Shown here piece by piece: positions 14 to 27,366 of a stretch of 64,000 nucleotides of DNA (position 1 is the first letter of the stretch; each line of letters opens with the position of its first letter). The notes below the pieces were generated by a model. The model did no database searches and was not told the DNA's origin. It worked only from the letters and a program-made list of their open reading frames with translations. This stretch comes from Dehalococcoidia bacterium. GTDB taxonomy: Bacteria; Chloroflexota; Dehalococcoidia; Bin125. The position numbers and the translations under genes were made by a program. Location of the stretch: assembly GCA_022828105.1 (NCBI GenBank), contig JAJEJC010000001.1:174090-238089 (forward strand), read 5' to 3'.

Positions 14-1096
14 ATGACGGACGACGGGCGGCTTGCGTTCTCGATCGCGGATGTGTCGGGCAAGGGCGTGGCTTCGGCGCTGATGATGGCGGTCGGCCGC
101 GCAGTCTTGCGCAGCGCGGCGAATCAACATCCCGATCCCAGCGAGGCGATCGCCTCGACCAACGATCAGCTGTGCTCGATGAATCCGAAGGAACTGTTCA
201 TCACGGCGTTCTTCGGAGTGATCGACCTGCGGCTCGGCACGTTGACTTATGTCAATGCCGGGCACGATCCGCCTTACATCATGAACTCGAACGGGAAGCC
301 GGAGATGATTCCGCACACCGGGGGGATCGCACTCGGCGTGCTGCCCGGGCTGTCTTACGCGGAGACCACGTTGCCGCTCGATCCCGACGTCACGCTGTTC
401 CTCTACACCGACGGCATCACGGAAGCGGAGGACGCGGCAGGGCGACAGTTTGGACGCGAACGGCTTGAGGACAAACTGACCGAGTTTGCTTCCGAAGCGC
501 CGCAAGCACTGATGGCCGACATCCTGCAGGACCTGGCGGACTTCCGGGGCGATGCGAAGCAGTTCGACGACATTACCTGCATGGCGTTGCAGTTCAACGG
601 CGGCGAGGCGTCGCTCGACTCGTACATTCCGGGTCAGGGCGATGCAAGGCTGGCGTCGGGCTGGCGCCGGATGGTTGTGCAGCCGTCGCTGGATACCTCG
701 CTGCCGAGGGTCGCGGCGTTCATCGAGCGGTTCGCGGAGTCGGAGGGCTTTGATGCGACGGAAGTGTTCCGGCTGAATCTGGCGCTCGACGAGCTGCTGA
801 CCAACACGCTGGAGCACGGGTTCCCGGACCAGACGGAAGATGCGGAGATCACGGTCGCGCTGCGCAGCGAAGGCGATGTGGTCGTGGCACGCTACGAGGA
901 CAACGGTCCGGAGTTCAATCCGCTGGAGGCGGCAGAGCAGGACACTGAACTGGAACTTGATGAACGGCCGATCGGCGGTCTGGGGTTGCAGCTGATTGTG
1001 GCGTCGTTCGATGCAGTAAGCTATGAACGTGTCAATGACCGCAACGTCACTACGCTGAAACAGCGGAGGATGAGCGCGAGCGAGGACAGCGAGTAG
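14..1096 (+). CDS. PP2C/SpoIIE-type Ser phosphatase domain (C-terminal half visible) fused to an RsbW-like HATPase_c anti-sigma-factor kinase domain; the 5' end is cut by the window edge.
   Basis: SIADVSGKGVASALMM and DGITEAED are PP2C/SpoIIE motifs. The C-terminal EVFRLNLALDELLTNTLEHGF region looks like an RsbW/SpoIIAB-type HATPase N-box. The ORF runs to the window start. Confidence 0.75.
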   Translation: MTDDGRLAFSIADVSGKGVASALMMAVGRAVLRSAANQHPDPSEAIASTNDQLCSMNPKELFITAFFGVIDLRLGTLTYVNAGHDPPYIMNSNGKPEMIPHTGGIALGVLPGLSYAETTLPLDPDVTLFLYTDGITEAEDAAGRQFGRERLEDKLTEFASEAPQALMADILQDLADFRGDAKQFDDITCMALQFNGGEASLDSYIPGQGDARLASGWRRMVVQPSLDTSLPRVAAFIERFAESEGFDATEVFRLNLALDELLTNTLEHGFPDQTEDAEITVALRSEGDVVVARYEDNGPEFNPLEAAEQDTELELDERPIGGLGLQLIVASFDAVSYERVNDRNVTTLKQRRMSASEDSE

Positions 1097-1137: not shown

Positions 1138-1473
1138 ATGGTCGACCTCTACCCCGAATACGACAACACCGTGCTGGTGCTCAATCCGCTAGGACGAATC
1201 GACGGAACCAATGCCAAGGCGTTCGAGGAGGCGTTGCTGGGCCGCATCGATGCGGGTGATCACAACATCTTGATGAATTTCGAAGGGATCAACTACATCT
1301 CTTCCGCCGGTCTGCGAGTGCTGCTGATGGCGGCCAAGCGAACGAGTCAGTCGGCCGGGAAGCTCGCACTGTGCGCCGTTCAGGACCACATCCAGGAAGT
1401 GTTCAAGTTCTCCGGCTTCTCGGAGATCATCCCGATTCACGATGACCGACCCGGGGCGTTGAACACGTTCTAG
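1138..1473 (+). CDS. STAS-domain anti-sigma-factor antagonist (RsbV/SpoIIAA-like).
   Basis: 111 aa. INYISSAGLRVLL is the STAS signature with a phosphorylatable Ser. AAGGAG sits 8 nt upstream of the ATG. It lies directly downstream of the phosphatase/kinase fusion. Confidence 0.8.
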   Translation: MVDLYPEYDNTVLVLNPLGRIDGTNAKAFEEALLGRIDAGDHNILMNFEGINYISSAGLRVLLMAAKRTSQSAGKLALCAVQDHIQEVFKFSGFSEIIPIHDDRPGALNTF

Positions 1474-1585: not shown

Positions 1586-3022
1586 TTAGAGGCCGAGGTC
1601 GGACTCCAGCTTGGCGATTGCGCGGGAGATGCGGTTGACGAGTTCGTCGGCCTCTTCCAGGTTGGTGGTCAGCGGCGGGGCGAAGGGGATAGCTGCGCCG
1701 CCCCTGGCGAGGACGCCTTCGTCGCGCAGGTACTGGGTGACCCGAGCCTGCACGTTGTCGGCCTCGTCAAAGTCCTCGCCGCTGGCGGGGTCCTTCTTCA
1801 GCTCGATGACCTGCATCAGCCCGATGCCTCGGGTGTGGTGAATGGTGCGGTGCTGCTCGCGCAACTGGACGAGTCGCGAGCGGACGTGCTCGCCGACGCG
1901 GGCGGAGTTCTCGACCAGACCCTCGCGCTCGATGATGTTGAGGTTGCCCAGGGCGACGGCGCAGGAGACGGGGTTGGCGCCCCAGGTGATGCCGCCGATC
2001 GTACCGTCCTTGCCGGCCTCCTCGAAGGTGCGGGCGATGTTGTCGTTGACCAGTGTGGCGGCAATCGGCGAGTAGCCGGAAGAAATCTGCTTGGCAGTGG
2101 TCATGATGTCAGGCTCGACGTCGAAGTGGTCCATGCCGAACCACTTGCCAGTGCGGCCGAAGCCGTTGATCACTTCGTCGGCGATCAGCACGATGTCGTG
2201 CTTGTCGCAGATCTCACGCAGCGTCTGCCAGTACTTCTTGTCGGGGACCCAACTACCATTGGCGGTCGAGATCGGCTCGGCGATCATGGCGGCGACAGTG
2301 CCGGGGCCGGCTGCCATGATCGTGTCCTCGATGGTGCGGGCGCAGAAGACGTCGCAGTCGGGGAAGGTCTTCTCGTAGGGGCAGCGGTCGCAGTTGACGT
2401 TGGGCACGTGGATCGAGCCAGGCACGAGCGGTTCGTAAGGCGCGCGCATGGAGTAGGCGGCGGCGTTGACCGAGAGCGCACCGGCGGTCTGACCGTGGTA
2501 GGAGCCAATCCGCGAGATGACCTTGAACTTCTCGCCGTTGCCGCGGATGTGGTGGTAGTGCTTGGCGATCTTGAGCGCGTTCTCGACGGCTTCGGAGCCT
2601 CCGTTGACGAAGACGGCCTTGCGGATCGTCGAGGGCGTCAGTTCGAAGAGCTTGGACGCGAGCGCGACCGCCGGCTCGGAGGCGTAGGCGAAGGTGTTCT
2701 GGTACGCGAGGTTCGACATCTGCTCATGGGCGATGTCGGCCAGTTCGGTGCGGCCGTGTCCGACGGCGTTGAGCCAGAGTCCCGACATGGCGTCGATGTA
2801 CTCGCGACCCTGGTCGTCGTGGAGGAAGATGCCCTCGCCCTTGCGGATCACCAGCAGGCCGTCATCGGCGGCAAGGTCGGCGTAGGACTGGGTCGGGATC
2901 CAGAGGTGCTCCAGAGATTGCTGTCGGAGTTCCGTATTTGTCTGCGTGGTCATGCAAGGTCCTGTCGTGCCATGTGTTGTCAGGACAGGATAGGCGCAAT
3001 GCCGCGGCGATGGGGCGGTCAA
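1586..3022 (-). CDS. Class III (omega) pyridoxal-phosphate aminotransferase.
   Basis: LIADEVINGFGRTGKWFG and DIMTTAKQISSGY carry the PLP-lysine region of the AT-III family. An alternative ATG at 2953 (MTTQTNTEL) would give the usual ~455 aa. Confidence 0.85.
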   Translation of the reverse strand: MTAPSPRHCAYPVLTTHGTTGPCMTTQTNTELRQQSLEHLWIPTQSYADLAADDGLLVIRKGEGIFLHDDQGREYIDAMSGLWLNAVGHGRTELADIAHEQMSNLAYQNTFAYASEPAVALASKLFELTPSTIRKAVFVNGGSEAVENALKIAKHYHHIRGNGEKFKVISRIGSYHGQTAGALSVNAAAYSMRAPYEPLVPGSIHVPNVNCDRCPYEKTFPDCDVFCARTIEDTIMAAGPGTVAAMIAEPISTANGSWVPDKKYWQTLREICDKHDIVLIADEVINGFGRTGKWFGMDHFDVEPDIMTTAKQISSGYSPIAATLVNDNIARTFEEAGKDGTIGGITWGANPVSCAVALGNLNIIEREGLVENSARVGEHVRSRLVQLREQHRTIHHTRGIGLMQVIELKKDPASGEDFDEADNVQARVTQYLRDEGVLARGGAAIPFAPPLTTNLEEADELVNRISRAIAKLESDLGL

Positions 3023-3624
3023 CGTTGGGCGGAGGTTGGGGCGCCTCGGGCTCGGAGGTCGTAGGCCATGATGACGAGATCGCGGAGCCGGCCGCTGCGG
3101 TCCATGACCCAGCCGGGCAACGTGGCGACCGCCTGGAAGCCGAGCGACTCGAAGACGGCCTGGGCGCTGTGTTGATCGTGGGTCATGCGCGCGGAGATGC
3201 GCTCGAGACCAATCGAGTCGGCGATCGCGAAGATCTCTTCGGCGAGGAAGCGACCCAGGCCCTGACCGCGGATTTGCGAGTTGACGGTGACGCGAATCTC
3301 GCCGATGTGCTCGGTCCAGCCGGCCTCGTTGTGGACCAGCGAGGCCTCGCCGACGATGTCACCGCTGTCGACGGCGAGCACGGTGCTGGTGCGGTGTTCG
3401 GCGATGTTCTCGAGCCAGCGGTCGACGACGCTTTCGTCGGTGATGTCCCAGGGCAGGTAGAGCAGATCGTCGCGGGAGAGCGAGCGGGCGAAGGCGAGGA
3501 ATCTCGACTTGTCGGCCTCACTCATCAGGCGCATGTCGATCTCGCGGCCGCCGCGCAGGGTGGCGCGGCTGGGGTATCGCCGCGCGATCAGGGCGGCTTG
3601 GCGGGCGGATGCTTCGGTGGTCAT
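3019..3624 (-). CDS. GNAT family N-acetyltransferase.
   Basis: RGQGLGRFLAEEIFAIADSIGLERI is the acetyl-CoA-binding motif A of the GNAT fold. Confidence 0.8.
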   Translation of the reverse strand: MTTEASARQAALIARRYPSRATLRGGREIDMRLMSEADKSRFLAFARSLSRDDLLYLPWDITDESVVDRWLENIAEHRTSTVLAVDSGDIVGEASLVHNEAGWTEHIGEIRVTVNSQIRGQGLGRFLAEEIFAIADSIGLERISARMTHDQHSAQAVFESLGFQAVATLPGWVMDRSGRLRDLVIMAYDLRARGAPTSAQR

Positions 3625-3755: not shown

Positions 3756-4322
3756 TCAGCTTGACGGTGGTCGCCAACGGGTGGTCTTGGGCTGGAGGCG
3801 GGCGCCGCGGTCGGCGGCCGAGTCTACTTCGATCATGACATCGTCGCCCGGGTACATCGTGCCCTGGCGGACGACGCGCGCGTAGAGTCGTGATCGACCG
3901 GGATGGGTGGCCTGGTTGATGCGGTTGAAGTCGCCGTCGCGGAAGCAGTGGGCGATGATCCGGCAGGGCGCGGCGTAGGAGGTGATTTCTACAATCACCT
4001 GCTCGCCGAGGTGGACGCGCGAGCCGGGCACCAGCTTCTTCCAGTCGAGGCCGCGGACGGTGACGTTCTCACCCGTGGTACCGGGTCCGATTTTGTGACC
4101 GTCGGCGCGCAACTGGTCGAGGATTTCCGCGGAGAAGAGGCAGACGGCGCGCTCGGTTCCGCCGTGGTGGCGGCGGTCGCGCTGGCGGTCTCGGGTCAGG
4201 CCGAACTCGTTGACAACCGCCTCGGGCACGGCGCGTTTGGGCACGCCGCCGGGCGAGACGTTGAGTTGTTCGATGCGGCCGGTGGTCCTGGTGCTCGGTG
4301 TGGTCATGTCGCTCTCCACCAT
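3756..4322 (-). CDS. MOSC-domain protein (YiiM-like).
   Basis: HGGTERAVCLFSAEIL followed by GENVTVRGLD, ending at a conserved Cys (SYAAPC). Confidence 0.75.
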   Translation of the reverse strand: MVESDMTTPSTRTTGRIEQLNVSPGGVPKRAVPEAVVNEFGLTRDRQRDRRHHGGTERAVCLFSAEILDQLRADGHKIGPGTTGENVTVRGLDWKKLVPGSRVHLGEQVIVEITSYAAPCRIIAHCFRDGDFNRINQATHPGRSRLYARVVRQGTMYPGDDVMIEVDSAADRGARLQPKTTRWRPPSS

Positions 4323-4360: not shown

Positions 4361-4478
4361 GGGGGAGAGGGGAGCCCCCCTCTGCCTTCGGCATCTCCCC
4401 CCGCTTCGCGGGGGGAGAGGGGAAGATGCGCTCGGCATTCCACGTGCTGCGCGGGGGGAGAAGGGATCAGCTGCGCCA
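4361..4478. repeat. Palindromic G/C-rich repeat element, copy A (core 4384-4433 with extra GCGCGGGGGGAGAGGGGA arms).
   Basis: The core reads cccccctctgccttcggcatctccccccgcttcgcggggggagaggggaag. It holds an 11-bp perfect hairpin tctccccccgc/ttc/gcggggggaga plus AGAGGGG/CCCCTCT pairing. Confidence 0.8.
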
Positions 4479-6095
4479 GTGGGCGATCATGCCGTCGACG
4501 TAGAGGACTCGGAGGGCGGAGAGGAGGCCGGGGAGGAGTTGGGCTCGCTGTTGATCAGGGACGCCTTCGAGCAGGTCGTCGAGCAGGTCTCGGACGGGGC
4601 GGCGGCCGTCGATTCTTGCGGCGAGCGCGGCGATCAGTGTCGAGATGGGCGCTCCTTGCGGGCGGGAGGTGGAGGAGATCACGGCGCCCCACTCGAACTG
4701 TCCCTCGCCGATGACCGGCTTGCGCTCGATCCGGACGCCGTCGGCGAGGCTGGGTACGGCGTCGAGCATCGGGCTGCGGTTGGGCCAGGCGGCGTCGATC
4801 AGGCGGGCCATCTCGGTGTCGCGGCGCTGGCGCTCCTGCTCGACGGCGGCGACGCCGTCGACGAAGTCGGGCGGCGCTTCGCCCTTTTCCAAGACGACGC
4901 GTTCGTAGCCTTGAGGCGGCTGTCCGGCGACGGCGGCGATAAAGGCTTCGCGCGGGGAGATGTCCTCCGCGCCGTGTACGATGCGGCGCGCTTCCCAGAA
5001 GTAGGAGTCGGAGGTGCGGTTGGAGGCGTAGAAGAGAGCAGCCATCTCGCGGAACTGGTGGTACTGCTGCATGTAGAGCTGGGTGTAGACCTCGGCGGCG
5101 GGCCCGCGCATGTCGGTGTCGCGCAAGGCAGAGGTGACGTAGGCGGAGGCGAGCAGCGCCGAAGAAAGCGCGAGGTGAACGCCGGAGGAGAAGAGCGGGT
5201 CGATGAAGCAGGCCGCGTCGCCAACGAGAATGTAGCCGTCGCCGACCAGGCGTTGCGAGGTGTAGGACCAGTCGCGGATTACGCGCGGCTCGTCGATCGG
5301 GGAGGCGTCGGCGAGCATGGCCGAGGTCTTGCGGGTCATGCCGAGTTGTCCGGCGTAGAACATGTCGGTCCCGGCGTCTGAGAGTTGCGCGCCGCCCCAG
5401 GCGGCGTCGACGACGACGCCAACCGACATCACGTCGTCGGGCAGGGGAATGGCCCAGGACCAGCCGTGCTCGTAGGCCTCGATGAAGATGTTGCCGGCGT
5501 CGGGTTCGGGCAGGCGCTGCGCGCCGCGGTAGTAACTGTAGACGGCGAGGTTGCGGAAGAAGTCGTCGTGCTCGCGCGTCTCGAGGCGACGGGCGATGAA
5601 GCCGGTCTGTCCGCTGGCGTCGACGATCCAGTCGGGCGTGAAGCGGTGCGTCTCGCCGTCGGGCGACTCGACCGTCAGCGAGGTCGGTTTGTCCCCGTCG
5701 AAGGCGACGTCGGTGACGCGCCAGCCTTCGCGCACGTCAACGCCGTTGCGCTCGGCGTTGCGCAGGAGCATCTGGTCGAAGGTCGGACGCCAGACCTGGT
5801 AGGCGTGTGGATAGCTGGCGTTGGTCTCGGCGAAGTGCCAGGACCAGGGCTCGGGGTCGCGGCCCCAGACCATGGTCGCGCCGTACTTGGGGGTGAAGCC
5901 GGCGGCTTCGATCTCATCGATGATCCCGAGGGTTTCAAGTATTGGGATGGAGGCGGGAAGGAGTGACTCGCCGACGTGCTCGCGGGGAAAGACTTCGCGC
6001 TCGAAGAGGGTGATGTTGAAGCCCTGTCGGGCGAGGAGGGTGGCGGCGGTGGAGCCGCCTGGTCCACCGCCGATGACGATGATGCTGTCGGACAT
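4467..6095 (-). CDS. FAD-dependent halogenase-like oxidoreductase (tryptophan-halogenase family) with a ~120-aa C-terminal extension.
   Basis: N-terminal IVIGGGPGGSTAA is GxGxxG. GWSWAIPL matches the WxWxIP flavin-halogenase signature. Lys in GFTPKYGATMVW sits where the catalytic Lys would be. GDAACFIDPLFSSG is the FAD motif. Confidence 0.8.
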   Translation of the reverse strand: MSDSIIVIGGGPGGSTAATLLARQGFNITLFEREVFPREHVGESLLPASIPILETLGIIDEIEAAGFTPKYGATMVWGRDPEPWSWHFAETNASYPHAYQVWRPTFDQMLLRNAERNGVDVREGWRVTDVAFDGDKPTSLTVESPDGETHRFTPDWIVDASGQTGFIARRLETREHDDFFRNLAVYSYYRGAQRLPEPDAGNIFIEAYEHGWSWAIPLPDDVMSVGVVVDAAWGGAQLSDAGTDMFYAGQLGMTRKTSAMLADASPIDEPRVIRDWSYTSQRLVGDGYILVGDAACFIDPLFSSGVHLALSSALLASAYVTSALRDTDMRGPAAEVYTQLYMQQYHQFREMAALFYASNRTSDSYFWEARRIVHGAEDISPREAFIAAVAGQPPQGYERVVLEKGEAPPDFVDGVAAVEQERQRRDTEMARLIDAAWPNRSPMLDAVPSLADGVRIERKPVIGEGQFEWGAVISSTSRPQGAPISTLIAALAARIDGRRPVRDLLDDLLEGVPDQQRAQLLPGLLSALRVLYVDGMIAHWRS

Positions 6096-6130: not shown

Positions 6131-6190
6131 TGGGGAACCCCCCTCTGCCTTCGGCATCTCCCCCCGCTTGCGCGGGGGGAGAGGGGAGAC
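6131..6190. repeat. Palindromic G/C-rich repeat element, copy B.
   Basis: gggaacccccctctgccttcggcatctccccccgcttgcgcggggggagaggggag. Same family and same orientation as copy A. Confidence 0.8.
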
Positions 6191-6266: not shown

Positions 6267-7562
6267 CTAGTCGCCGGGGAAGGCGGCTCCGGAACCGGTG
6301 TTGACTTCGAAGGCTCCCTTGAGGTCGAGTTCCTTGCCCATCTCGCGGACGGCGGGGATGACTTCCTCGCCGAAGAGGCGGAGGGAGCGCATGGCGTCGT
6401 CGTGGTTCATCGCGCCGTCGCCGTCCCAGAAGAAGATGTTGCCGGGGCGCAACTCTTCGAGGACGTGGCGGATCTTGGGGATTACGGTCTTGGGCGTACC
6501 CGTGATGATCGAGTACTTGTTGACCTGTTCCTCGTAGGTACCGAAGGCGTCAGCGTCCTGCTTGTCGGTTTCGGCATCCTTCTCGGCCAGCGCGGCGTCG
6601 CGCTCGGCCTGGCGGCCGCGAGCGGCGGCGGCGAAGGTGGTGACCGTCGGCAGCAGCGCGGTGCGGCTGGTCAGACCGGGCAGGTTCTGCAGGTTGCTGC
6701 GAACCGTGCCCTGGTTGCCCTCGAGGAACGGGTTGGCGGGACCGGAGATGTACTTGCGTCCGGCTTCCTCGGCCAGTTCCTCGGTCTCGTCGACGTGGAC
6801 CTTGAAGAGGTAGCCGTGGTGCTCCGTCGATGCCTCGTAGCCGTTTTCGCGCGCGACCTCGTCGTAGTAGTTGAACGACTGCTTGGTCGGCTCGATCTCG
6901 GTGGCGAGCATGACGTAGGGGTAGCGATGCTCGGCGCACCACTTGACGGTGTTGCGCGACATCACGCCGGGGATCCAGATCTGCGGGTGCGGATCCTGGT
7001 AGGGGCGGGCCCAGGGGTTGACGTAGCGGTACTGGTAGTGCTCGCCTTCCCAGCGGAAGGGACCTGGAGTCGACCAGGCCTTGACAACGAAGTCGTGGGC
7101 TTCCTGGAAGCGCTCCCAGTTGAAGGGCGCCTGCGAGTTGTGGGCAACGGACTCGCGGCCGGTACCGCGCACCCAGCCGGTGACCAGGCGGCCGCGCGAG
7201 ATCATGTCGATCTCGGCGAGCTCCTCGGCCAGCCAGAGCGGGTCTTCCCAGATCGGCAGGACGTTGCCGAGCAGGACGATCTTGGCGCGCTTGGTGATGC
7301 GGGCGAGGATGGCCGCTTCGACGTTCATCACGCCGCCCATGCAGAAAGGCGTGGAGTGATGCTCGTTGAGCATCAGGCCGTCGAAGCCCATCTCCTCGGC
7401 GTAGACCTTCTCGTCGAGGTAGCGGTTGTAGAGTTCCGCGCCGATGCGGGGATCGTAGTCCCCGTTGGTCATGCCCAGGTCCTCAATCTCACGCCCGGTC
7501 GCGCCGACCCAGCCTGATTCGAAGTCCTGGTAGGGACGCTCGGTGAAATAGCCAATGAACAT
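6267..7562 (-). CDS. LLM-class (luciferase-like) flavin-dependent oxidoreductase.
   Basis: LNEHHSTPFCMGG and EIDMISRGRL are typical of the luciferase-like monooxygenase TIM barrel. 431 aa including a C-terminal tail. Confidence 0.85.
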   Translation of the reverse strand: MFIGYFTERPYQDFESGWVGATGREIEDLGMTNGDYDPRIGAELYNRYLDEKVYAEEMGFDGLMLNEHHSTPFCMGGVMNVEAAILARITKRAKIVLLGNVLPIWEDPLWLAEELAEIDMISRGRLVTGWVRGTGRESVAHNSQAPFNWERFQEAHDFVVKAWSTPGPFRWEGEHYQYRYVNPWARPYQDPHPQIWIPGVMSRNTVKWCAEHRYPYVMLATEIEPTKQSFNYYDEVARENGYEASTEHHGYLFKVHVDETEELAEEAGRKYISGPANPFLEGNQGTVRSNLQNLPGLTSRTALLPTVTTFAAAARGRQAERDAALAEKDAETDKQDADAFGTYEEQVNKYSIITGTPKTVIPKIRHVLEELRPGNIFFWDGDGAMNHDDAMRSLRLFGEEVIPAVREMGKELDLKGAFEVNTGSGAAFPGD

Positions 7563-7657: not shown

Positions 7658-8452
7658 CTAGAGTCCCGAGATGAACGAGCTGATTGCGTCGGCGGCGGCC
7701 TGCGGGTTCTCCAGTTCGACGAGGTGTCCCGCGCCCTCGATGACCTGCAGGGTGCTGTTGGGCAGGCTGGCGTCGTAGACCTCGGCCACGCCGATCGGCG
7801 TCACACGGTCGTTCTCGCCCCAGAGCAGCAGCGTAGGCGTCTCGACCTCGCCGATCAGGTGGGGAAGCTGCCGATTGAACATCCACGGCTTCCAGGTCAG
7901 GCGGGCGGTCATCTCGCGGGAGAAGTCCCACAGTTCCTTGAGTTCGGGCGCGGCTTCGTCGCCGAAGACTTCGGCGTACGCCTCGTCGGAGGAGAAGCCG
8001 AGCTTCACGTACTCTTCGAACTCGTAGAAGATCACGTCGGCGATTTCGCCCTCCTCGGGCTGGACGCCGGCGGCGCCGACCAGGACCAGGCTGTCGAGGC
8101 CGTGCAGGTGCATGGCGGCAAGCTCGGCCGCGACCCAGCCGCCGAAGCCCATGCCGACCATGTGGGCGTCGTTGTCGATGCCCATCTTGTGCACGGCGCT
8201 GTGCAGCAGCATGGCAATGTCGCGCGGGTGCCGCGCCCAGGTCGGCCGTTCGGACTGTCCGTAGCCGGGCATGTCGATCGCGGTGACGGTGTGGTTCTGG
8301 GCGAGCAGGTCGTAGAAGGGAATCCAACCGGGCGAGCCGGTGGAGTGGTGGAGGACGACGATGTTCGGTCCGCTGCCGTCCTGCAGCGCGTTCACCTTGA
8401 GTCCCGCGACTTCAACGGCGATCTGCGTGTGTGTCTCTGTCTCTGTGGTCAT
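7658..8452 (-). CDS. Alpha/beta-hydrolase fold protein.
   Basis: HGSTGS region, nucleophile elbow MVGMGFGGW, and a C-terminal GAGHLVELE His motif. The track ORF extends to 8815 but the upstream 121 aa are low-complexity. MTTETETH at 8452 is the plausible start. Confidence 0.8.
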   Translation of the reverse strand: MTTETETHTQIAVEVAGLKVNALQDGSGPNIVVLHHSTGSPGWIPFYDLLAQNHTVTAIDMPGYGQSERPTWARHPRDIAMLLHSAVHKMGIDNDAHMVGMGFGGWVAAELAAMHLHGLDSLVLVGAAGVQPEEGEIADVIFYEFEEYVKLGFSSDEAYAEVFGDEAAPELKELWDFSREMTARLTWKPWMFNRQLPHLIGEVETPTLLLWGENDRVTPIGVAEVYDASLPNSTLQVIEGAGHLVELENPQAAADAISSFISGL

Positions 8453-8636: not shown

Positions 8637-11600
8637 ATGCTGGGACTTCTGCGACTGCTCAGACTGGCGGCGTTGCGCGAGTTGCGCGGCGGCTGGGCGC
8701 TGATGCTGGCGGCGTCGGCGCTGCTGATCATCGCGGCCGGATTGGTCGCGCTGCCGCTCGTGTTTCGGGCCGCGTCGGCCGACCTCGCGCTGCGCGAGAC
8801 GATCGAGCAGTCCAATCGCGCCGTCCACTTCGTCGATCACACCCGTGCGGATCGTCCGGCGACACAGGCCGATGTCGTGGCGACGGCGGCGACGGCGGGC
8901 GAGCTGCGCGAACGTCACCTGGGTTCCTTCAAGGGTCTGCAAGGCGCGACGAAGCGGATCCTCGACTCACCGCAGGTGACATCGAGCTTCACGCGTCTCG
9001 ACAACAAAATCACGGAGGAGATGCTGGCCTATCTGACCGTGTTCGAGGACCTGAACGCGCATGCGAGGGTCGTGTCGGGACGCTGGCCGCAGGCGGCAGA
9101 TGAGGTCGTGATCGGCGCGAAGCTGGCGGAGCAACTGAGCCAGGACGTCGGCAGCACGATCGTATTCGGGAGCGCGCAGCCGTACACCATCGTCGGTCTA
9201 ATCGAGCCGGTCTCGGTTGACGTCAGCGGCGTGTTGGCGCTGCATTACACCGATGTCTGGTTTGAGCTTCAGGAGAACCTGGCCGGGCTGGTCGTGATTC
9301 CATACTTCGCGATGTTCGCCGGCGTCGAGGCGCTCGAGCAAGTCGGACTGCCGCTGGTGCATCGGTTCCGGACAGAGCTGAATCCCGATCGGTTGAACTC
9401 GGACCAGGTGGAGAAGGCGGTTGAGGCATTGGCGGCGTGGGAGCAGGAATCGAATCGACTGGTAGGCGGCTCGGCTTCGGCGCTGTTGTTGCCGACTTTG
9501 CAGCGATTCGAGCGGGAGGCGCAGTTCTCGGCCGGGCAGTCGCTGCTGGCCGGTCTGCAGATTGCGGCGGTGGCGATGTTCGGGGTGGCGCTGGTCGGTC
9601 GGGTGATGGCGCAGCGGACGCGGGTGGATCGGGAGCGGCTGGCGGCTCGCGGGGCGAAGCCATGGCAGCAGGCAGGGGCGCAGGCGATGCTGGGCGGACT
9701 GGCGGCAGTCCCGGCGGCGTTGCTCGGCGCGCCGCTGGCTGCGTTTGCATTGAGCCACGCGGGCCGGTTGGACGCCGTGGCGCGTGTGTCTGGCGGCGAG
9801 CCGTTTGACACGCGCCTGACCTGGGAAGCCTGGGCTCTGGCCGTGACCGGCGCACTGATCGCCTGGATCGCGTTCGCCGCCCCCGCCTGGTTCGATTCGC
9901 GCCAGCGGGAAAATCCGCGTGTCGCGGCGGGGCGTCCGCGGCGGCGCTCGCTGTTCCAGCGGGCCTGGCTCGATGTGGCGTTGCTGGCGCTGGCGACGGT
10001 GCTGTTCCTGCAGTTTGAGACCGAAGCTTCGGGCGGCGCGTTCTCGGCGTTCGAGTCGGGCGGGATGAATCCAGTGCTGATGCTCAGCCCGGGGCTGCTG
10101 TTGCTCGGCGCGGCGCTGACGATCATGCGGGTCGCGCCGCGCGTCTGGGGCATCGTTGCCCGGCTGCTCTCGCGATTGCCGATTCCATCCTGGCTCTATC
10201 TCGGCGTGCTCAACGTCGCGCGCAATCCAACCGGTCCGATGTTGCTCACGGCGTTGACCGCATTTGTCACGGCGGTCGGACTGATCTCGGCTACCTATGC
10301 GTCGACGATCGAGACCGTGGAGCGGGAACGGATCGAGTATCAGGTCGGTTCGGACCTGCGCGGCGTCTCGATCGGGGGCAACCTGTCGAACTCGACGATT
10401 GGCCGGGTGACCGAGCCGCTCGAACGGCGAGACGGGATCACGTCGGCGGCGGCGTACCGCGGGATCGGCTCAATCGGCGGCGACCGCGAGGGCAGTCGGG
10501 TGGTGCTGTTGGGGCTGCAAACCAGCCGCATCGGCGAGACCGTGTTGCTCGACGACGATCTGCTCGGCGTGCCGTCGGAGCAGCTATTGGCGGCGATTGC
10601 GCGTGAGCCGGGCCGGGTCGGGCAGGCCTTGCCCGACGGCGCGGAGTCGCTCGTAATCCGTGTGCGCAGCGAACCCGACAACAGCAACCTGGAGATGGCT
10701 GCGCGGGTCATTGACGGGCACGGCCAGGTCCAGATGAGGCAGTTCCGCAGCAACACGGCTACGACCGTGGACTCCGAGTGGCAGACACTGGAGGCGCCGC
10801 TCGCGGGGCTGAATCAGCCGCTTCGGATCGCCGCCATCGTGCTGCGTCCGCAGGCGAGGGTCGTGCGAGCGCCGACGGGCACGCTCTTCATCGCCGGTCT
10901 CGAGGCTCGGGTTGGAGAGCAGTCGGTCGCGGTCGATGCATTCGATGAGGCGGCGCCGTGGCTCGCGGCATCGAGCGGCGCTGGGCAGGACCGGATCGTG
11001 TTTGCGGGCGGCAACCTGGAGTACCGCTGGTCGCAGCTCGACGCGAACGACGAGCGGATCATCGTGCGGGAATCTCCAAACCTGCCTGTGAACGCGGCGA
11101 TGGATCGGAGATCACTGGAGACGGCCGATCTGGACGTCGGCGACGTGGTTCCGATCGTGCTGAGCAATACCACCATTCCGGTGCGGATCACGGCAGCGGT
11201 CGATTACTTTCCGACCTTGAATCCGGCCCAGGGTGGATTCCTGATTGCCGATCTGTTGGCGCTGCGCAGCGCGGCGCTCGTCGCGGCCGTGCGGGCCGTG
11301 CTGCCGATCACGGAAGTCTGGGCGCGCACAGAGACCGGCGCTGCCAATGTGATCGCGGCGGAACTGCTGGACGAGGTGTACCTGTCGAGCACGGTGCTCG
11401 ACGCCGACGCCCAGCTTGCGGCGGCCGAGTCCGATCCGCTGCGCTCGGGCGGGACGGCGGCGTTGTTTGTGGTTGGCTTCATCGGCTTGCTGGTGGTCGG
11501 ATCGGCGGCGCTGGTGTTCACGATGGCGGCGGCCGGCAGCGAGCGGGCGCGTGAGTTCGCGTTGATGCGGACGGTTGGATCGGGCCGGGCGGGACTGACC

Positions 11601-11876
11601 GCGCAGGCGGCGGTGGAGGTGGGCCTGGTGCTGATTGCCGGAGTCGGCCTGGGATTCGGACTGGGCCGGGCCGTCGCCGGCGCACTGCTCGCATTCCTCG
11701 ATGTGACGAGCGACGGTGTCGCGGCCGCGCCGCCCACGGCGTTGTCGATTGACTGGGCACTAGCCGGGATCGGGGTAGGCGTCGTGGCCGCCTGCGCGAT
11801 CCTGGGTACGTCGGCGATTGCCCGCTGGGCGACGGGACGCGATGCCGCGCCGCTGTTGCGGGAAGGCGCCGACTGA
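8637..11876 (+). CDS. Large duplicated FtsX-like (MacB-type) ABC permease, 1079 aa.
   Basis: N-terminal TM, extracellular domain and FtsX 4-TM bundle occur twice. The C-terminal MRTVGSGRAGL...LIAGVGLGFGLG resembles FtsX. Confidence 0.75.
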   Translation: MLGLLRLLRLAALRELRGGWALMLAASALLIIAAGLVALPLVFRAASADLALRETIEQSNRAVHFVDHTRADRPATQADVVATAATAGELRERHLGSFKGLQGATKRILDSPQVTSSFTRLDNKITEEMLAYLTVFEDLNAHARVVSGRWPQAADEVVIGAKLAEQLSQDVGSTIVFGSAQPYTIVGLIEPVSVDVSGVLALHYTDVWFELQENLAGLVVIPYFAMFAGVEALEQVGLPLVHRFRTELNPDRLNSDQVEKAVEALAAWEQESNRLVGGSASALLLPTLQRFEREAQFSAGQSLLAGLQIAAVAMFGVALVGRVMAQRTRVDRERLAARGAKPWQQAGAQAMLGGLAAVPAALLGAPLAAFALSHAGRLDAVARVSGGEPFDTRLTWEAWALAVTGALIAWIAFAAPAWFDSRQRENPRVAAGRPRRRSLFQRAWLDVALLALATVLFLQFETEASGGAFSAFESGGMNPVLMLSPGLLLLGAALTIMRVAPRVWGIVARLLSRLPIPSWLYLGVLNVARNPTGPMLLTALTAFVTAVGLISATYASTIETVERERIEYQVGSDLRGVSIGGNLSNSTIGRVTEPLERRDGITSAAAYRGIGSIGGDREGSRVVLLGLQTSRIGETVLLDDDLLGVPSEQLLAAIAREPGRVGQALPDGAESLVIRVRSEPDNSNLEMAARVIDGHGQVQMRQFRSNTATTVDSEWQTLEAPLAGLNQPLRIAAIVLRPQARVVRAPTGTLFIAGLEARVGEQSVAVDAFDEAAPWLAASSGAGQDRIVFAGGNLEYRWSQLDANDERIIVRESPNLPVNAAMDRRSLETADLDVGDVVPIVLSNTTIPVRITAAVDYFPTLNPAQGGFLIADLLALRSAALVAAVRAVLPITEVWARTETGAANVIAAELLDEVYLSSTVLDADAQLAAAESDPLRSGGTAALFVVGFIGLLVVGSAALVFTMAAAGSERAREFALMRTVGSGRAGLTAQAAVEVGLVLIAGVGLGFGLGRAVAGALLAFLDVTSDGVAAAPPTALSIDWALAGIGVGVVAACAILGTSAIARWATGRDAAPLLREGAD

Positions 11877-14800
11877 TGGCCCGCCAACTGCCGACGCCGC
11901 AACAGAGTCAGAGTGATGCGCCCCGGCGGGGCGAGACGGCGCGCGAGTTGGCGCTGCTCGCGATCCGCCGGATCACGTCGGCACCGCGGCTCTCGGCGGT
12001 GCTGCTGATCGGCGCGCTGCTTGCGGTCGGTCTGGCCAGCAGCGCGCCGATCTTCATCGAGGCGGTTCGGGACCTGGGACTTCGCCAAACGTTGGCCGAA
12101 GCCGATCCTGCCTCGCTTGACCTGCGCGTCGTCCGCTCGAACATCACGGCCAATCAGGAATCGGTTGGCTCGGTTGAGTCGGTGATCCAAACGGAGGCCG
12201 GCAGCGCGCTCGGAGCGCTCAGCTCCGAGCGAATGAGCGCGATTCGGACCGGCGGCTTCACGTTGCGCAGCGACGATCAGCCGTTCAACCCGCCGGATCC
12301 GCCGCACGCGACGTTCCTGGCCCAGAACGACCTGGCGGATGTATCGCTGCTGGCGGATGGTCGCCTGCCGGCTGTTGCCGAGGGAGTGATCGAGGTAGTC
12401 GTCGAGTCGCCGCAGGCGGAACGGTTCGGACTCGTCGTGGGCGACGAGCGCCTGGCGCAGCCGTTCTGGCTGGGCACGCAGCACGAGACGCGGGTGCGCA
12501 TCGTAGGCCTGGTCGAGCCATCGACGGACGAGCGGCGCTGGTCGACGCTGGACCCGCTGTACTTGCCGGTGGCCGCGCGCGACTCCGAACTGCGCTTCTG
12601 GACCAGCCGGGAGAGCATCCTCGGCATCCTGGCCGACCATTCGCCAACGCTGCGGCTGACCGTATTGCAGCGCTACCGAACCGATCTGGCCGGCGTCTCG
12701 GCGACGCAGGCGTCGGCTGCTGCCGATGCGCTCGAACGGATGACGCGGCGGATCGCGCAGGCGATTGACGGCGTGCAGCAGGAGACCGAGTTGGTCGACA
12801 CGCTGGTGGGGTTCCGGGAGCGATTCCAGTTCGCGCAATCGACGCTGCTGATGATCGTCTTGCAACTCGTGGGCGCGGTGCTGGTCTATGCGGTGGTCGC
12901 CTCGGCGATGTTGGCCGAGCAGCGCACCGAGGACACGGCCTGGCTGCGTTCGCGCGGCGCGCGGCAACGGGACGTGGCGGTGTTGCACCTGGTTGAGGCG
13001 GCGATGCTGACCGCTCCGGCGATTGTGCTCGGTCCGCTGATCGGAGTGGGGCTGGTCAGCCTGCTCGGCTTTGTGCCGCCGTTCGACGAGGCGCTTCGGG
13101 AGATCGGGTTCGGCCCGTTCCTGCCTGCGCCGCTTCCGGCCGAATCCTGGTACCTGGCGCTGGGCGCCGGCGCGTTGGCGCTGATTGCGCAGGCCGTGCC
13201 GACGTACCGCGCGACGCGCCAGACGATGGTGACCACAAGGAGAGAGCGAGGCCGTCCGCCCGCGTCGTGGACGCAGCGGGCTCTGATCGACGCGGCTGTT
13301 GTGGCGCTGGGGGCGCTGCTGATCTTCGAGCTGCAGTGGGCCGGGGACCCGATCGATTCGCCGCTGGTCGGGGAGACGCGGCTGGACTGGTTGGCGGTGG
13401 CGACGCCGACGGTGTTGCTGTTCGTGGTCGGACTGGCGGTGCTGCGGCTGTTTCCGACGGCGATGCGGGGCCTGGCCCGCGCCGCGTCGCCGCTGCGATG
13501 GCTCACGCTGTTGCTGGGCGCGTGGTACCTGGGACGGACACCGACCCACTACGGACGCACGGTGTTGCTGCTCACTATCGCCGGCGCGCTGGCCGTGTTC
13601 GCGGCGTCGTTCCGGACCACGCTCGACGCGTCCTACGACGATCGCGCGTTGCATGCGGTCGGCGCTGTGGTGCGCGTGCAGGAGCCGCTCTCGCAGACCC
13701 TGCCGTTCGATCGGATTGCCGAGTCGACGGGCAAGCCGGTGGCGCAGGTGCAGCGGATCACGGGCACGTTCGACGGCGACGAGGACTCGGGCAAGCTGCA
13801 GATTGTCGCTCTCGACGCCTCGACGGTCGCGGGCCAGATGCGCGAGGGCGGGGTCGACTGGTCGATGTCGCCGCAGGAACTCGACACGATCGGCCGGCCA
13901 ATCTCGCAGGCCGAGCGACCGATCCTTGAGTCCGGCGGGCGGGTCAGTCTGCGCCTGACTCCGGTGGGCATCGGACAGAGCGTCACGCTCGGGATCAAGG
14001 TCCAGGACGCGATCGGGCGGTACTGGTGGTATCGGCTGGGAGAGTTGTCGCAGTCCGATAGCGAGACGATTGAGCTGAGCGCCACGATTGGCGGCGAGCC
14101 GACGCTGTACATCCCGCTTGAAGGCGCGAGAGTGGTCGAGCGACGCAGCGCCTGGCGTCCCGGGGTCGGGGAGCGTCCCGAGTGGCCGCTGCAGTTGGTC
14201 TCGGTCGATGTTGCGCTGGCGCGAGCGCCGGGAGCTGTGGTCCTGCACTCGCTCGAGTACCGCTTCGCAGGCGAGACGAGCGTGATCGCCGACTTCAATC
14301 TCGACGAATGGGAGGCGATGCCGCTGTCGGCGGGCGAGGAAGCGGTCGACAGACTTGAGGCCGTGGAGGGCGGTTCGCGATACCGCTGGGATGCGACGCC
14401 GACGTCGCTGCGCGGGGTGCACTACCGCGGCGACAGCGAGCCGCTGCCGGTGCTGCTCTCGTCGGCGGCGATGGCGCAGGGCCGGTTGCGGATCGGGGAG
14501 CTGGTGCGGCTGCGGATTGGTCCGACGCCGATGCGGTTCGAGGTGGTCGGAGAGTTCAAGACCTTCCCCACGTACGACGAGCAGCGCGACGATCCGATCG
14601 TGATCCTCGATCGCGCGTCGCTGGTCGGACGCATCTACGGCAGCGCGTCGGCCGGCGTGTCGCTGGCGGTCGACGATGAGTTGTGGATTTCCGCTCCAAT
14701 CTCGGAGTGGCAGACACTGATCGTTGAGCAAGATGCGGCGGTGGAGAGCGATCAGGCCAACCGGTTCAATGAAGATTCCGACACGCAAGTCACTACTCGT

Positions 14801-15418
14801 ATTGGAATCACGATCATCACTAGATCCGTGCGTCCGGATGACGAACGAGCTTCGACATCGGAGATTGAGCAGCTTGCGGCAGGCGAAGCAGAGGAACAGC
14901 CGCCCCAGGTGCCACACGCAGATGCAACGGTCAGCGGCATTCTGACGCTCGACCAGGCACGCAGTGATTTGGCTGCCGATCCGCTGATTGTGGCCTCGTG
15001 GAACGGCGTCTTCATTGGGGCGCTGGCGGCGGTGGCGATTGCCTCGGCGTTCGGGCTGGTCGTGCTGACGGCGGTGACGGCGCAGGCGCGCAGGGTGGAG
15101 TTCGCGGTTTGCCAGAGCGTGGGCATGAGCATGCGCCAGATCCTGGCAATGATCGCGCTGGAGCAGTCGATTGTGATCGCGATCGGTCTTGGCGCGGGAT
15201 TGGTAGTGGGCACGCAAGCGGGCGCAATCCTGCTTGACTTCTTTGCGCTCACACCGGACGGCCGGGACGTCGTGCCGCCGCTGCAATTCATCGTCGACTG
15301 GCCGGGCGTGGCGGTGCTGTTCGGGGCGTTGGCCGGCCTGTTCGCGCTCAACCTGGGCGCGTTCCTCTGGTTCCTGCGGCGGATCGAGTTGCACGGGGCA
15401 TTGCGGCTGGCGGCATAG
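11876..15418 (+). CDS. Second large duplicated FtsX-like ABC permease, 1180 aa, translationally coupled to the previous gene by an ATGA overlap.
   Basis: VCQSVGMSMRQILAMIALEQSIVIAIGLGAGLVVG is an FtsX signature, and the permease architecture is repeated. The start overlaps the stop of the upstream gene. Confidence 0.75.
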   Translation: MARQLPTPQQSQSDAPRRGETARELALLAIRRITSAPRLSAVLLIGALLAVGLASSAPIFIEAVRDLGLRQTLAEADPASLDLRVVRSNITANQESVGSVESVIQTEAGSALGALSSERMSAIRTGGFTLRSDDQPFNPPDPPHATFLAQNDLADVSLLADGRLPAVAEGVIEVVVESPQAERFGLVVGDERLAQPFWLGTQHETRVRIVGLVEPSTDERRWSTLDPLYLPVAARDSELRFWTSRESILGILADHSPTLRLTVLQRYRTDLAGVSATQASAAADALERMTRRIAQAIDGVQQETELVDTLVGFRERFQFAQSTLLMIVLQLVGAVLVYAVVASAMLAEQRTEDTAWLRSRGARQRDVAVLHLVEAAMLTAPAIVLGPLIGVGLVSLLGFVPPFDEALREIGFGPFLPAPLPAESWYLALGAGALALIAQAVPTYRATRQTMVTTRRERGRPPASWTQRALIDAAVVALGALLIFELQWAGDPIDSPLVGETRLDWLAVATPTVLLFVVGLAVLRLFPTAMRGLARAASPLRWLTLLLGAWYLGRTPTHYGRTVLLLTIAGALAVFAASFRTTLDASYDDRALHAVGAVVRVQEPLSQTLPFDRIAESTGKPVAQVQRITGTFDGDEDSGKLQIVALDASTVAGQMREGGVDWSMSPQELDTIGRPISQAERPILESGGRVSLRLTPVGIGQSVTLGIKVQDAIGRYWWYRLGELSQSDSETIELSATIGGEPTLYIPLEGARVVERRSAWRPGVGERPEWPLQLVSVDVALARAPGAVVLHSLEYRFAGETSVIADFNLDEWEAMPLSAGEEAVDRLEAVEGGSRYRWDATPTSLRGVHYRGDSEPLPVLLSSAAMAQGRLRIGELVRLRIGPTPMRFEVVGEFKTFPTYDEQRDDPIVILDRASLVGRIYGSASAGVSLAVDDELWISAPISEWQTLIVEQDAAVESDQANRFNEDSDTQVTTRIGITIITRSVRPDDERASTSEIEQLAAGEAEEQPPQVPHADATVSGILTLDQARSDLAADPLIVASWNGVFIGALAAVAIASAFGLVVLTAVTAQARRVEFAVCQSVGMSMRQILAMIALEQSIVIAIGLGAGLVVGTQAGAILLDFFALTPDGRDVVPPLQFIVDWPGVAVLFGALAGLFALNLGAFLWFLRRIELHGALRLAA

Positions 15419-15425
15419 GCGCCAT

Positions 15426-15483
15426 GGGGCAGCCCCCCTCTGCCTTCGGCATCTCCCCCCGCTGCGCGGGGGGAGAGGGGAAC
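15426..15483. repeat. Palindromic G/C-rich repeat element, copy C.
   Basis: gcagcccccctctgccttcggcatctccccccgctgcgcggggggagaggggaac, between convergent gene ends. Confidence 0.8.
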
Positions 15484-26469: not shown

Positions 26470-27366
26470 TCAGTCGGCCGGCCAGCCGAGCGCTGAGGCG
26501 ACCTCAGAGGCGGCGCGGGCAAAGTTCATGGTGTAGATGTGCAGGCCGGGCGCACCGAGTTCAAGCAACTCGCGGCCCAACTCGACCGCGGTCTCGACGC
26601 CGATTTCGCGGCGCTCGGCCTGACTCGACGCACGCTCCAGGCGGTCGTGGATTCCGGACGGAAACTCGGTGCCGTTGAGCGCCGACATGCGCTCGACGCT
26701 TGCCACGTTGGTTGGCGGCATGATCCCGGCGATCACCGGGGTCCGCACCCCGCGCGCATCGAGCTGGCTGACGAACTGCTCGTAGTACTCGGTGCGGTAG
26801 AAGAACTGCGTAATGGCGAAGTCGGCCTGGGCGAGCTTTGTCGACTGATGCGCGAGGTCGGCCTCGACCGACGCCGCCATCGGATGGCCTTCGGGATGTG
26901 CGGCGACGCCGATATCCCAGTCGGCCCGCTCGCGGATGAAGCGGGCGAGTTCGGCGGCGGCGTCGAAGGCAGGGGACCCCCCCTCAGCCTTCGGCAGCTC
27001 CCCCCCTCTGGGGGGGAGCGAAGAAGAGGGGAGCGGAGCGTCGCCGCGGAGGGCGAGGATGTTGGCGATGCCGTCGGACTGGTAGTCGCGGACAATTGCG
27101 GCGACTTCGTCACGCGTGTGGGCGACGCAGGTCAGGTGCGGCATCGCCTCGACGGCGAAGTCCTCGCGGATGGCGCGGACCCAGTCGCGAGTCGGACCGC
27201 GAGTGGCGCCGCCGGCGCCGTACGTGACGGACATGAACTGCGGTCGGTGTGCGGCAAGCCGGGCGAGGGTCTGCCTCAGGCGCTCGGCGCCTTCCTCGTC
27301 GCGCGGGGCGGAAAACTCGAACGACAGCGTTTGGCCCGCATCCAGCAACTGCGAGATGCGGGCCAT
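26470..27366 (-). CDS. metF: 5,10-methylenetetrahydrofolate reductase MetF carrying an in-frame repeat-element insertion.
   Basis: QFMSVTYGAGG, NILALRGD and ITQFFY match the MetF family. Relative to E. coli MetF an extra ~16 aa (PSSSLPPRGGELPKAE) is encoded by repeat copy E. Confidence 0.85.
   Translation of the reverse strand: MARISQLLDAGQTLSFEFSAPRDEEGAERLRQTLARLAAHRPQFMSVTYGAGGATRGPTRDWVRAIREDFAVEAMPHLTCVAHTRDEVAAIVRDYQSDGIANILALRGDAPLPSSSLPPRGGELPKAEGGSPAFDAAAELARFIRERADWDIGVAAHPEGHPMAASVEADLAHQSTKLAQADFAITQFFYRTEYYEQFVSQLDARGVRTPVIAGIMPPTNVASVERMSALNGTEFPSGIHDRLERASSQAERREIGVETAVELGRELLELGAPGLHIYTMNFARAASEVASALGWPAD
26971..27036. repeat. Palindromic G/C-rich repeat element, copy E, located inside the metF coding sequence in frame.
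   Basis: aggggacccccctcagccttcggcagctccccccctctgggggggagcgaagaagaggggag. It translates on the minus strand as PLPSSSLPPRGGELPKAEGGSP. Confidence 0.75.

Follow-up and report, generated by a model that had tools for sequence, protein, structure and literature searches.

A flavin-dependent halogenase is commonly interpreted as a tailoring enzyme encoded in a nonribosomal peptide synthetase (NRPS) or polyketide synthase (PKS) cluster. Among the closest described systems, CndH, SgcC3, CrpH and FasV ("variant B" enzymes) are encoded in NRPS/PKS or aromatic polyketide clusters; SgcC3 and CrpH are phenol halogenases, and several variant B halogenases act on carrier-bound tyrosyl substrates. CmlS, the chloramphenicol halogenase of Streptomyces venezuelae (3I3L), combines a catalytic core with a C-terminal winged-helix lobe and is thought to act on an activated acyl carbon, and FasV on an aromatic polyketide. 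A further relative, QhpG (7CTQ), is a peptidyl-tryptophan dihydroxylase of quinohemoprotein amine dehydrogenase maturation; it is encoded in a qhp operon that also specifies a radical-SAM enzyme and a precursor, and its substrate site is a pocket between its two domains (PMC7876137). The present analysis concerns a gene in a 64,000-nucleotide stretch (hereafter the window) of a Dehalococcoidia bacterium (assembly GCA_022828105.1, contig JAJEJC010000001.1, positions 174,090–238,089 of the forward strand). To judge from its sequence, the product is very probably a true flavin-dependent halogenase, with predicted activity, and belongs to the CmlS/CndH/FasV branch. The gene occupies the third place in a conserved cassette, preceded by genes for an alpha/beta-hydrolase and a luciferase-like (LLM) flavin oxidoreductase and followed by a gene for a MOSC-domain protein. 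The enzyme represents a new branch within an established family, its architecture is of a type already described, and it is encoded in a conserved operon different from the clusters of CndH, SgcC3, CrpH and FasV.

The halogenase gene occupies positions 4467–6095 on the minus strand, with its ATG at 6095 and its stop at 4467–4469. A preliminary description of the locus, made from the sequence alone, had reported this 542-aa open reading frame (ORF) without its strand; the frame (542 codons plus stop) is real, and its GC content by codon position is that expected of a gene, reaching 0.88 at third positions in a window of 66% GC. The plus-strand frame across the same interval is interrupted throughout by stops and was discarded.

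Membership of the halogenase family, which had been proposed from motifs, was confirmed by a hidden Markov model search, in which Pfam Trp_halogenase (PF04820) scored 151 bits (cut-off, 21 bits; E = 6e-44). The best NCBIfam model was the CmlS equivalog (NF033113), which covered residues 4–392 only and reached 344 bits, far under its cut-off of 900; therefore, the halogenase is not a CmlS orthologue. The best sequence matches in the PDB were CndH (3e1t; E = 8e-90), CmlS (3i3l; E = 2e-87) and FasV (8zop, the name that Foldseek gives to this entry; E = 5e-74), with identities of 41, 39 and 36%, respectively, over approximately 390 aa, and these were followed by Mpy16, ChlB4, PltA, Bmp2 and RadH. 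Assignment as a tryptophan halogenase of the PrnA/RebH type was rejected, because PrnA, RebH and Thal match short stretches only (E from 1e-7 to 1e-4) and not the full length with the C-terminal tryptophan-binding module and the catalytic Glu. The preliminary description had named a misaligned catalytic lysine together with a place in the geranylgeranyl-reductase or squalene-monooxygenase clade as grounds for abandoning the assignment. The geranylgeranyl reductase model (TIGR02032) scored 119.6 bits against a subfamily cut-off of 158.8, and squalene monooxygenase, UbiH and KMO were either under their cut-offs or matched in the Rossmann region only, squalene monooxygenase in its N-terminal Rossmann stretch. 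With neither ground found to apply, the halogenase assignment stands.

The family is large, with 4148 proteins at E < 1e-10 among the candidates scored. Its close members are annotated only as "tryptophan 7-halogenase" of Chloroflexota metagenome-assembled genomes (MAGs), and an uncultured microorganism is the source of one homologue (73% identical) recorded as a "putative halogenase." The sponge-metagenome protein E0X6N2 ("putative halogenase") and the MAG proteins called "tryptophan 7-halogenase" by PGAP belong to the same family over their full length, at 55–93% identity; E0X6N2 is presumably linked to the work of Bayer et al. (2013). More distant relatives (35–42% identical) are plasmid-borne, and some of these genes are annotated cmlS. 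Two of them, labeled only "tryptophan 7-halogenase" or "NAD(P)/FAD-dependent oxidoreductase," we take to be SgcC3 (C-1027 plasmid) and CrpH (Nostoc ATCC 53789), although the records do not name them.

The catalytic core comprises residues 1–392 (4920–6095, minus strand) and aligns end to end with residues 10–400 of CndH and with residues 25–420 of the CmlS chain. In the AlphaFold model, the block-mean predicted local distance difference test (pLDDT) over the core is mostly 76–97 and drops to approximately 58–70 past residue 350. All of the motifs reported in the preliminary description are present. The GxGxxG dinucleotide-binding motif, recognized from the translation and the homologue alignment, is GGGPGG (residues G9–G14; 6054–6071, minus strand), of which G9, G10, G11, P12 and G14 are invariant across 115 database homologues and G13 varies with Ala. 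The GESxxP-type contact with flavin adenine dinucleotide (FAD) is GESLLP (residues 42–47) and is likewise invariant among the homologues. Lys70 in TPKYG (codon 5886–5888, minus strand), the predicted catalytic lysine that would form a haloamine or guide the hypohalous acid (HOX), aligns with CndH K76 and CmlS K71 (numbering cross-checked), and Glu43 and Asp275 correspond to CmlS E44 and to its flavin-linking D277. The match to K79 of PrnA and RebH is indirect: both enzymes align only partially (PrnA over residues 4–61 only), and CndH K76 and CmlS K71 are the equivalents of PrnA K79 in the published structures. The WxWxIP motif (W212-S-W214-A-I216-P217, within GWSWAIPL at residues 211–218) lies at 5445–5462 on the minus strand. 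A second halogenase signature near the flavin/halide site, FxDPxFSxG (F297–G305; 5181–5207, minus strand), is aligned with CndH, CmlS and FasV; it reads F297-I-D-P-L-F-S-S-G305 inside the stretch GDAACFIDPLFSSGVHLA (residues 292–309) and is invariant save for I/V at position 298 and S/T at position 304. K70, E43, W212, W214, I216, P217, D275 and the F, D, P, F, S and G residues of the second signature are 100% conserved in 194 sequences (the 115 database homologues and 79 genome loci).

Core signatures and lysine are identical in CndH, SgcC3, CrpH and FasV, which share 36–42% identity with the halogenase over residues ~5–392. The preliminary description had treated WxWxIP as diagnostic of halogenases, and this holds for the full motif in combination with the lysine, but not for WxW by itself. 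QhpG, a proven monooxygenase, keeps W181 and W183 of WxW (PMC7876137), and a genuine QhpG from a Cupriavidus qhp operon reads WAWMAR at this site, with a gap opposite Lys70, no IP after WxW and no GESLLP. Therefore, the discriminating features are the lysine and the complete WxWxIP.

The alignments with CndH, SgcC3, CrpH and FasV stop near residues 392–400 and leave an extension of approximately 150 aa (residues 393–542), somewhat longer than the ~120 aa first estimated. The extension was rightly noted, but it is not the oddity it was taken for. It begins with a linker (residues 393–440; 4776–4919, minus strand) that contains a conserved VAGQPPQGYERVVL segment and then a helix; the linker is modeled with low confidence (pLDDT < 50 for residues 390–421) and is nonetheless conserved in the family alignment, as are residues 393–542 throughout the family. 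The remainder (residues 441–542; 4470–4775, minus strand) is a PqqD/RRE-like winged-helix domain, where RRE denotes the recognition element of RiPPs (peptides that are made by the ribosome and modified after translation). The structure prediction called for by the preliminary description is confident: the last 102 residues modeled alone reach a pLDDT of 95.6, with strands at 15–23, 26–34 and 42–44 followed by helices at 46–54, 61–68 and 74–93, and short flanking strands at 7–10 and 97–101. The same order of three strands followed by three helices is found in PqqD and the RREs of TbiB1 and 6JX3, from which the present lobe differs in being fused to a halogenase and in having no adjacent precursor peptide.

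Several comparisons relate this lobe to known structures. A Foldseek search of the PDB with the winged helix returned a GdmN domain, QhpG (24% identity), TbiB1, 6JX3, CmlS, CteB and TglHI, with high probability and with E-values that all exceed 1e-3; TbiB1 (5v1u/5v1v) and 6jx3, with template modeling (TM) scores of 0.6–0.7, are lasso-peptide RREs solved with bound leader peptides. In a profile comparison by hhalign, the winged helix matched nine annotated PqqD sequences with a probability of 72% (P = 3.4e-5, 74 columns), and the alignment places "rPEGxP" opposite "YPEGM" and "IDGrrtV" opposite "DGxRxV." Pfam (including PqqD) and NCBIfam gave no match to the C-terminal 102 and 152 aa, and tblastn of the domain against plasmids likewise found none. 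The whole protein aligns with genuine QhpG over residues 1–520, winged helix included (probability 99%, E = 5e-18, 412 columns), with approximately 50 residues inserted in the halogenase; residues ~370–440, which include the linker, form an insertion relative to QhpG. The best full-length structural match is CmlS 3I3L (553 columns, TM 0.70, 30% identity). The CmlS model ends at residue 392, so that the C-terminal domains of these two enzymes cannot be aligned on sequence, and the winged helix here is nearer to QhpG and RREs than to the CmlS lobe. On these structural and profile matches, the extension belongs to the CmlS/QhpG-type architecture of core plus winged helix, and the predicted fold makes it the same kind of lobe as in those two enzymes and PqqD/RRE-like.

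A search of 1.84 billion representative proteins with the winged-helix profile gave 135 matches. Eight were inspected, and seven of these are C-terminal pieces of halogenases of this family, the eighth being a repetitive protein with a weak, multi-stretch match; no other architecture was seen and, judging from these eight, the sequence family appears to be confined to these halogenases. In a 260-aa database protein (P0123), an N-terminal fragment that on visual inspection resembles an LLM protein is continued by a linker and winged helix from a halogenase of the family; this protein is either an assembly chimera or the product of a deletion that fused two adjacent genes.

The preliminary description had placed the gene outside any obvious biosynthetic cluster. 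With respect to NRPS and PKS clusters this is correct: Pfam scans of approximately 45 ORFs spread over the 64 kb, with short ORFs and some of middle size left out, found no NRPS, PKS or carrier-protein domain, in agreement with the earlier reading, and no cml genes, so that the chloramphenicol cluster context of CmlS is absent among them. The two ORFs of more than 1000 aa at 8637–15418, considered as possible NRPS or PKS genes, encode FtsX/MacB-type permeases. The gene is nevertheless part of the four-gene cassette. On the minus strand, the order is alpha/beta-hydrolase, LLM oxidoreductase, halogenase, MOSC protein, GNAT and class-III aminotransferase. The hydrolase (264 aa; 7658–8452, minus strand, according to the source-contig gene call, the ORF extending to 8815) matches Pfam Abhydrolase_1/6, and its PDB relatives are meta-cleavage-product (MCP) hydrolases and esterases; a peptidase assignment, which weak S33/TAP-like Pfam scores had suggested, was rejected on these relatives. 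The LLM flavin oxidoreductase (431 aa; 6267–7562, minus strand) matches Pfam Bac_luciferase (6e-34) and no specific NCBIfam family, and the MOSC-domain protein (3756–4322, minus strand; Pfam MOSC, 1.5e-19) is YiiM-like (5yhh, 1.3e-9). These two immediate neighbors had been identified correctly, and both lie on the same strand as the halogenase gene.

Conservation of the cassette was assessed at 79 halogenase loci obtained from a scan of species-representative genomes, with neighbors counted within 8-kb flanks. The loci are nearly all from Dehalococcoidia (SAR202, Tepidiformaceae and putative sponge-derived MAGs, the isolate labels RHO1, IRC3 and SB066x being taken by us as sponge-derived), and the remainder are from Entotheonella, one Acidimicrobiaceae MAG and several Pseudomonadales MAGs. 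An LLM gene is near the halogenase gene in 50 of the 79 and directly upstream on the same strand in approximately 45, a hydrolase gene is near in 36, and a MOSC gene follows in 15, with distant loci included; in four loci, the MOSC start and the halogenase stop share 4 nt. MOSC also follows the halogenase in distant metagenome loci. The gene order recurs in Dehalococcoidia, in some Pseudomonadales MAGs and in unbinned metagenome contigs. MAGs with the labels ALOHA or SAR202, a TARA contig and the genome of a single SAR202 cell from 505 m also carry the cassette. Most clades of the halogenase tree have the hydrolase-LLM pair nearby, at some loci in a downstream, inverted or divergent arrangement, and the LLM protein is 78–82% identical where the halogenase is only ~54% identical. 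The reverse test, starting from the LLM protein in independent metagenome contigs, found a clear halogenase at 30 of the 50 LLM loci with enough flank and a weak partial one at five; of 62 metagenome loci, 44 have a hydrolase upstream of the LLM gene. Thus, the linkage holds from either gene and survives rearrangement. Literature searches on an operon of halogenase, LLM enzyme and hydrolase, on MOSC with a halogenase, or on 8ZOP returned nothing relevant, and neither the cassette nor the RRE-like nature of the lobe was found in the literature searched.

These features make it rather probable that the enzyme is a two-component halogenase of the CmlS/CndH/FasV (phenol/enol, variant B) branch that acts on a free phenolic or enolic substrate in a small pathway. 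A free, non-carrier-bound phenolic or enolisable small molecule is suggested because neither a carrier protein nor a precursor peptide was found nearby, and because the closest characterized relatives act on tyrosine-derived phenols or an aromatic polyketide or, in the case of CmlS, presumably on an activated acyl carbon. With the chemistry taken from the established flavin-halogenase mechanism, an unlinked flavin reductase would supply FADH2, which would react with O2 to give the C4a-hydroperoxide, and attack of a halide on the latter would generate HOX. The wall formed by W212 and W214 would separate HOX from the bulk substrate, and HOX would pass to Lys70, with Glu43 nearby, for delivery of X+ onto an electron-rich carbon of a substrate that would be held, as in CmlS, in a pocket where the catalytic core faces the winged-helix lobe at the C terminus. 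The halogenated molecule might then be further oxidized (oxygenated) by the LLM enzyme and hydrolyzed at an ester, lactone or C-C bond by the alpha/beta-hydrolase, with possible reduction of the product by the MOSC protein, all of these steps forming one short pathway.

Several observations weigh against this proposal. No flavin reductase was found among the scanned ORFs, and CmlS, the architectural model, is itself without a defined substrate. A strong hairpin and a repetitive extragenic palindromic (REP)-like element lie between the LLM and halogenase genes, and co-transcription is therefore not assured. Fifteen of the 50 LLM loci lack a halogenase, and paralogous halogenase clades occur in other contexts, namely with an XDH-family molybdoenzyme and CoA-transferase III, with a TPP enzyme and HpcH aldolase, and with an NHL-repeat protein and DUF1800; the linkage is therefore strong but not obligate. 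Finally, the C-terminal domain is RRE-like and homologous to the winged helix of the peptide-acting QhpG, which argues for a peptide substrate.

The last point introduces an alternative that we regard as possible but improbable, in which the PqqD-like winged helix docks a ribosomal peptide encoded elsewhere, or a partner such as the LLM enzyme or the hydrolase, and the core would halogenate a Tyr- or Trp-type side chain, by analogy with the action of QhpG on QhpC. The pairing of the "PEG" and "DGxRxV" segments with PqqD, the Foldseek matches to the leader-bound lasso RREs TbiB1 and 6jx3 and also to CteB and TglHI, and the alignment with QhpG through the winged helix are all consistent with this alternative, as is the fact that CndH, like the relatives taken to be SgcC3 and CrpH, acts on tyrosine-derived phenols. 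However, the Pfam PqqD and NCBIfam models miss the winged helix, the fold-search E-values are all above 1e-3, and CmlS carries the same kind of lobe without a known peptide substrate. Moreover, no small ORF conserved beside the halogenase gene was found within -4 kb/+3 kb of it at the 79 loci, the sole candidate being restricted to one paralogue clade, and the partners, which are MCP-hydrolase/esterase-like, LLM and MOSC proteins, include no RiPP enzyme, peptidase or exporter. The comparison with QhpG favors the peptide alternative, since its peptide substrate docks in the pocket that lies between core and winged helix (PMC7876137). A preprint of September 2025 lists only MibH, SrpI, MppI and ChlH as halogenases of Trp within peptides (10.1101/2025.09.03.674030), so that an RRE-fused peptide halogenase would be new. 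The free-substrate reading also competes with two bolder proposals, which we advance tentatively and consider, taken together, unlikely: either the enzyme may be the first flavin-dependent halogenase with a built-in PqqD/RRE domain for a peptide or partner protein, which its own operon might encode, just as LodB and QhpG mature operon partners, or the cassette may be a halogenation-assisted catabolic module, in which activation of an enolisable or phenolic carbon may lead to oxygenation and C-C or ester hydrolysis and which abundant SAR202-type bacteria could apply to recalcitrant marine organic matter.

It is less probable still that the protein is a halogenase-like enzyme without halogenase activity, such as a monooxygenase of the QhpG/LodB type or another oxidase, which would join the LLM enzyme in degrading dissolved organic matter oxidatively. 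QhpG does combine WxW with monooxygenase chemistry, and its model (NF049967) scores 215 bits, near the cut-off of 240, and that of LodB 147. Orthology to either was rejected on these scores, on the wrong genomic context (no qhp genes lie near the halogenase gene) and on the presence of the lysine. The neighbors of the paralogues (CoA-transferase III, SDR, GMC, HpcH aldolase and LLM) are typical of SAR202 catabolism (compare PMC5395668), which would suit an oxidase. On the other hand, Lys70, the full WxWxIP and FxDPxFSxG are invariant in the 194 sequences, genuine QhpG is without both Lys and IP, and the halogenase models and structures outscore every monooxygenase by far. The closest relatives, which include Entotheonella and MAGs with labels taken as sponge-derived, together with the 73%-identical "putative halogenase," would suit a third alternative, in which the enzyme tailors a natural product of a symbiont, such as an alkaloid of the sponge bromotyrosine type, in whose pathway the GNAT (3019–3624, minus strand) and the class-III aminotransferase (1586–3022, minus strand), encoded directly downstream of MOSC, would take part. 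Sponge Chloroflexi have been linked to halogenases and brominated alkaloids (PMC6644159). We consider this very unlikely, because the GNAT and aminotransferase genes are conserved in the five closest loci only, core biosynthetic genes are absent nearby, and the cassette also occurs in the MAGs labeled ALOHA or SAR202, the SAR202 single cell and the TARA contig.

If the enzyme is active, this large branch of thousands of database matches, situated in a compact cassette conserved in Dehalococcoidia from seawater and sponges and in unbinned metagenome contigs, would represent a widespread halogenating pathway independent of assembly lines in very abundant uncultured bacteria. It would bear on which organisms make or transform marine organohalogens, on the origin of halogenated sponge metabolites and on the role of the winged-helix lobes of CmlS and QhpG; were the catabolic module real, SAR202-type bacteria would be tied to the ocean organohalogen cycle. 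Should the substrate be an ordinary phenol, the enzyme would be a useful and unsurprising addition to the halogenase family. The four-gene unit also offers enzymologists a defined set to express.

Besides the three conserved contexts of paralogous clades named above (loci L014, L021, L024, L035 and L057; L038, L045, L051, L055 and L058; L067, L070 and L073–L075), there is a fourth, in which the halogenase gene is accompanied by genes for a cyclase, an SDR and a GMC oxidoreductase. Several genomes carry two copies of the halogenase family, and the paralogues thus seem to have expanded as in other enzyme families of SAR202. A ~70-aa protein (MCRSIKTLRR...), which we take to be DUF2277-like, is encoded directly 3′ of the halogenase gene in one paralogue clade only (L014, L021, L024 and L035). 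The families that neighbor the paralogues are among those expanded in SAR202 (PMC5395668; PMC6306507).

The spacers of the cassette contain repeated elements. Just past the LLM stop codon, the 171-nt LLM-halogenase spacer, which folds with z = -5.5, carries a 12-bp perfect hairpin that precedes a REP-like GC-rich hairpin element at 6138–6190 (minus strand), and a second copy lies in the halogenase-MOSC spacer at 4375–4417 (minus strand), so that copies flank the halogenase gene on both sides. The element consists of a hairpin, CTCCCCCCGC...GCGGGGGGAG, and then GATGCCGAAGGCAGAGGGGGG. A further copy is found at 15433–15475, past the second FtsX gene, and a weaker one at 26978–27005, against a chance expectation of zero. 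A scan of the cassette for sigma-70 promoters and terminators gave signals no higher than those of shuffled sequences. In the closest genome, OZ241962.1 (L034, 6870–7995), an insertion of approximately 0.9 kb separates the LLM and halogenase genes; it contains a 277-aa ORF with an HTH-like stretch recognized by eye, the translations of the surrounding ORFs resemble REP-like GC-rich repeats, and the whole has the appearance of a small mobile element inserted in the spacer.

The other scanned ORFs of the window are ordinary housekeeping and catabolic genes, including those for MTHFR, parts of NADH dehydrogenase, a formate-dehydrogenase-like molybdoenzyme, an acyl-CoA dehydrogenase, an XDH-family enzyme and a large subtilase. 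A CLC-type chloride channel of 703 aa with CBS and TrkA-C domains is encoded at 19601–21712 (plus strand), approximately 13.5 kb from the halogenase gene. An HpaB-type FADH2-dependent two-component monooxygenase is encoded at 45458–46897 (plus strand) and a KshA-like Rieske oxygenase at 48629–49927 (plus strand); the gene 3′ of hpaB, considered as a possible HpaC flavin reductase, encodes a LON substrate-binding domain protein. The two large FtsX/MacB-type permeases (8637–11876 and 11876–15418, plus strand; 1079 and 1180 aa) are divergent from the cassette. As with GNAT and the aminotransferase, the FtsX, STAS and SpoIIE neighbors are retained only in the five closest genomes. At the other end of the window, a SpoIIE phosphatase fused to a HATPase_c_2 kinase-like domain (14–1096, plus strand) is followed by a STAS protein (1138–1473, plus strand), and this pair is a compact partner-switching module.

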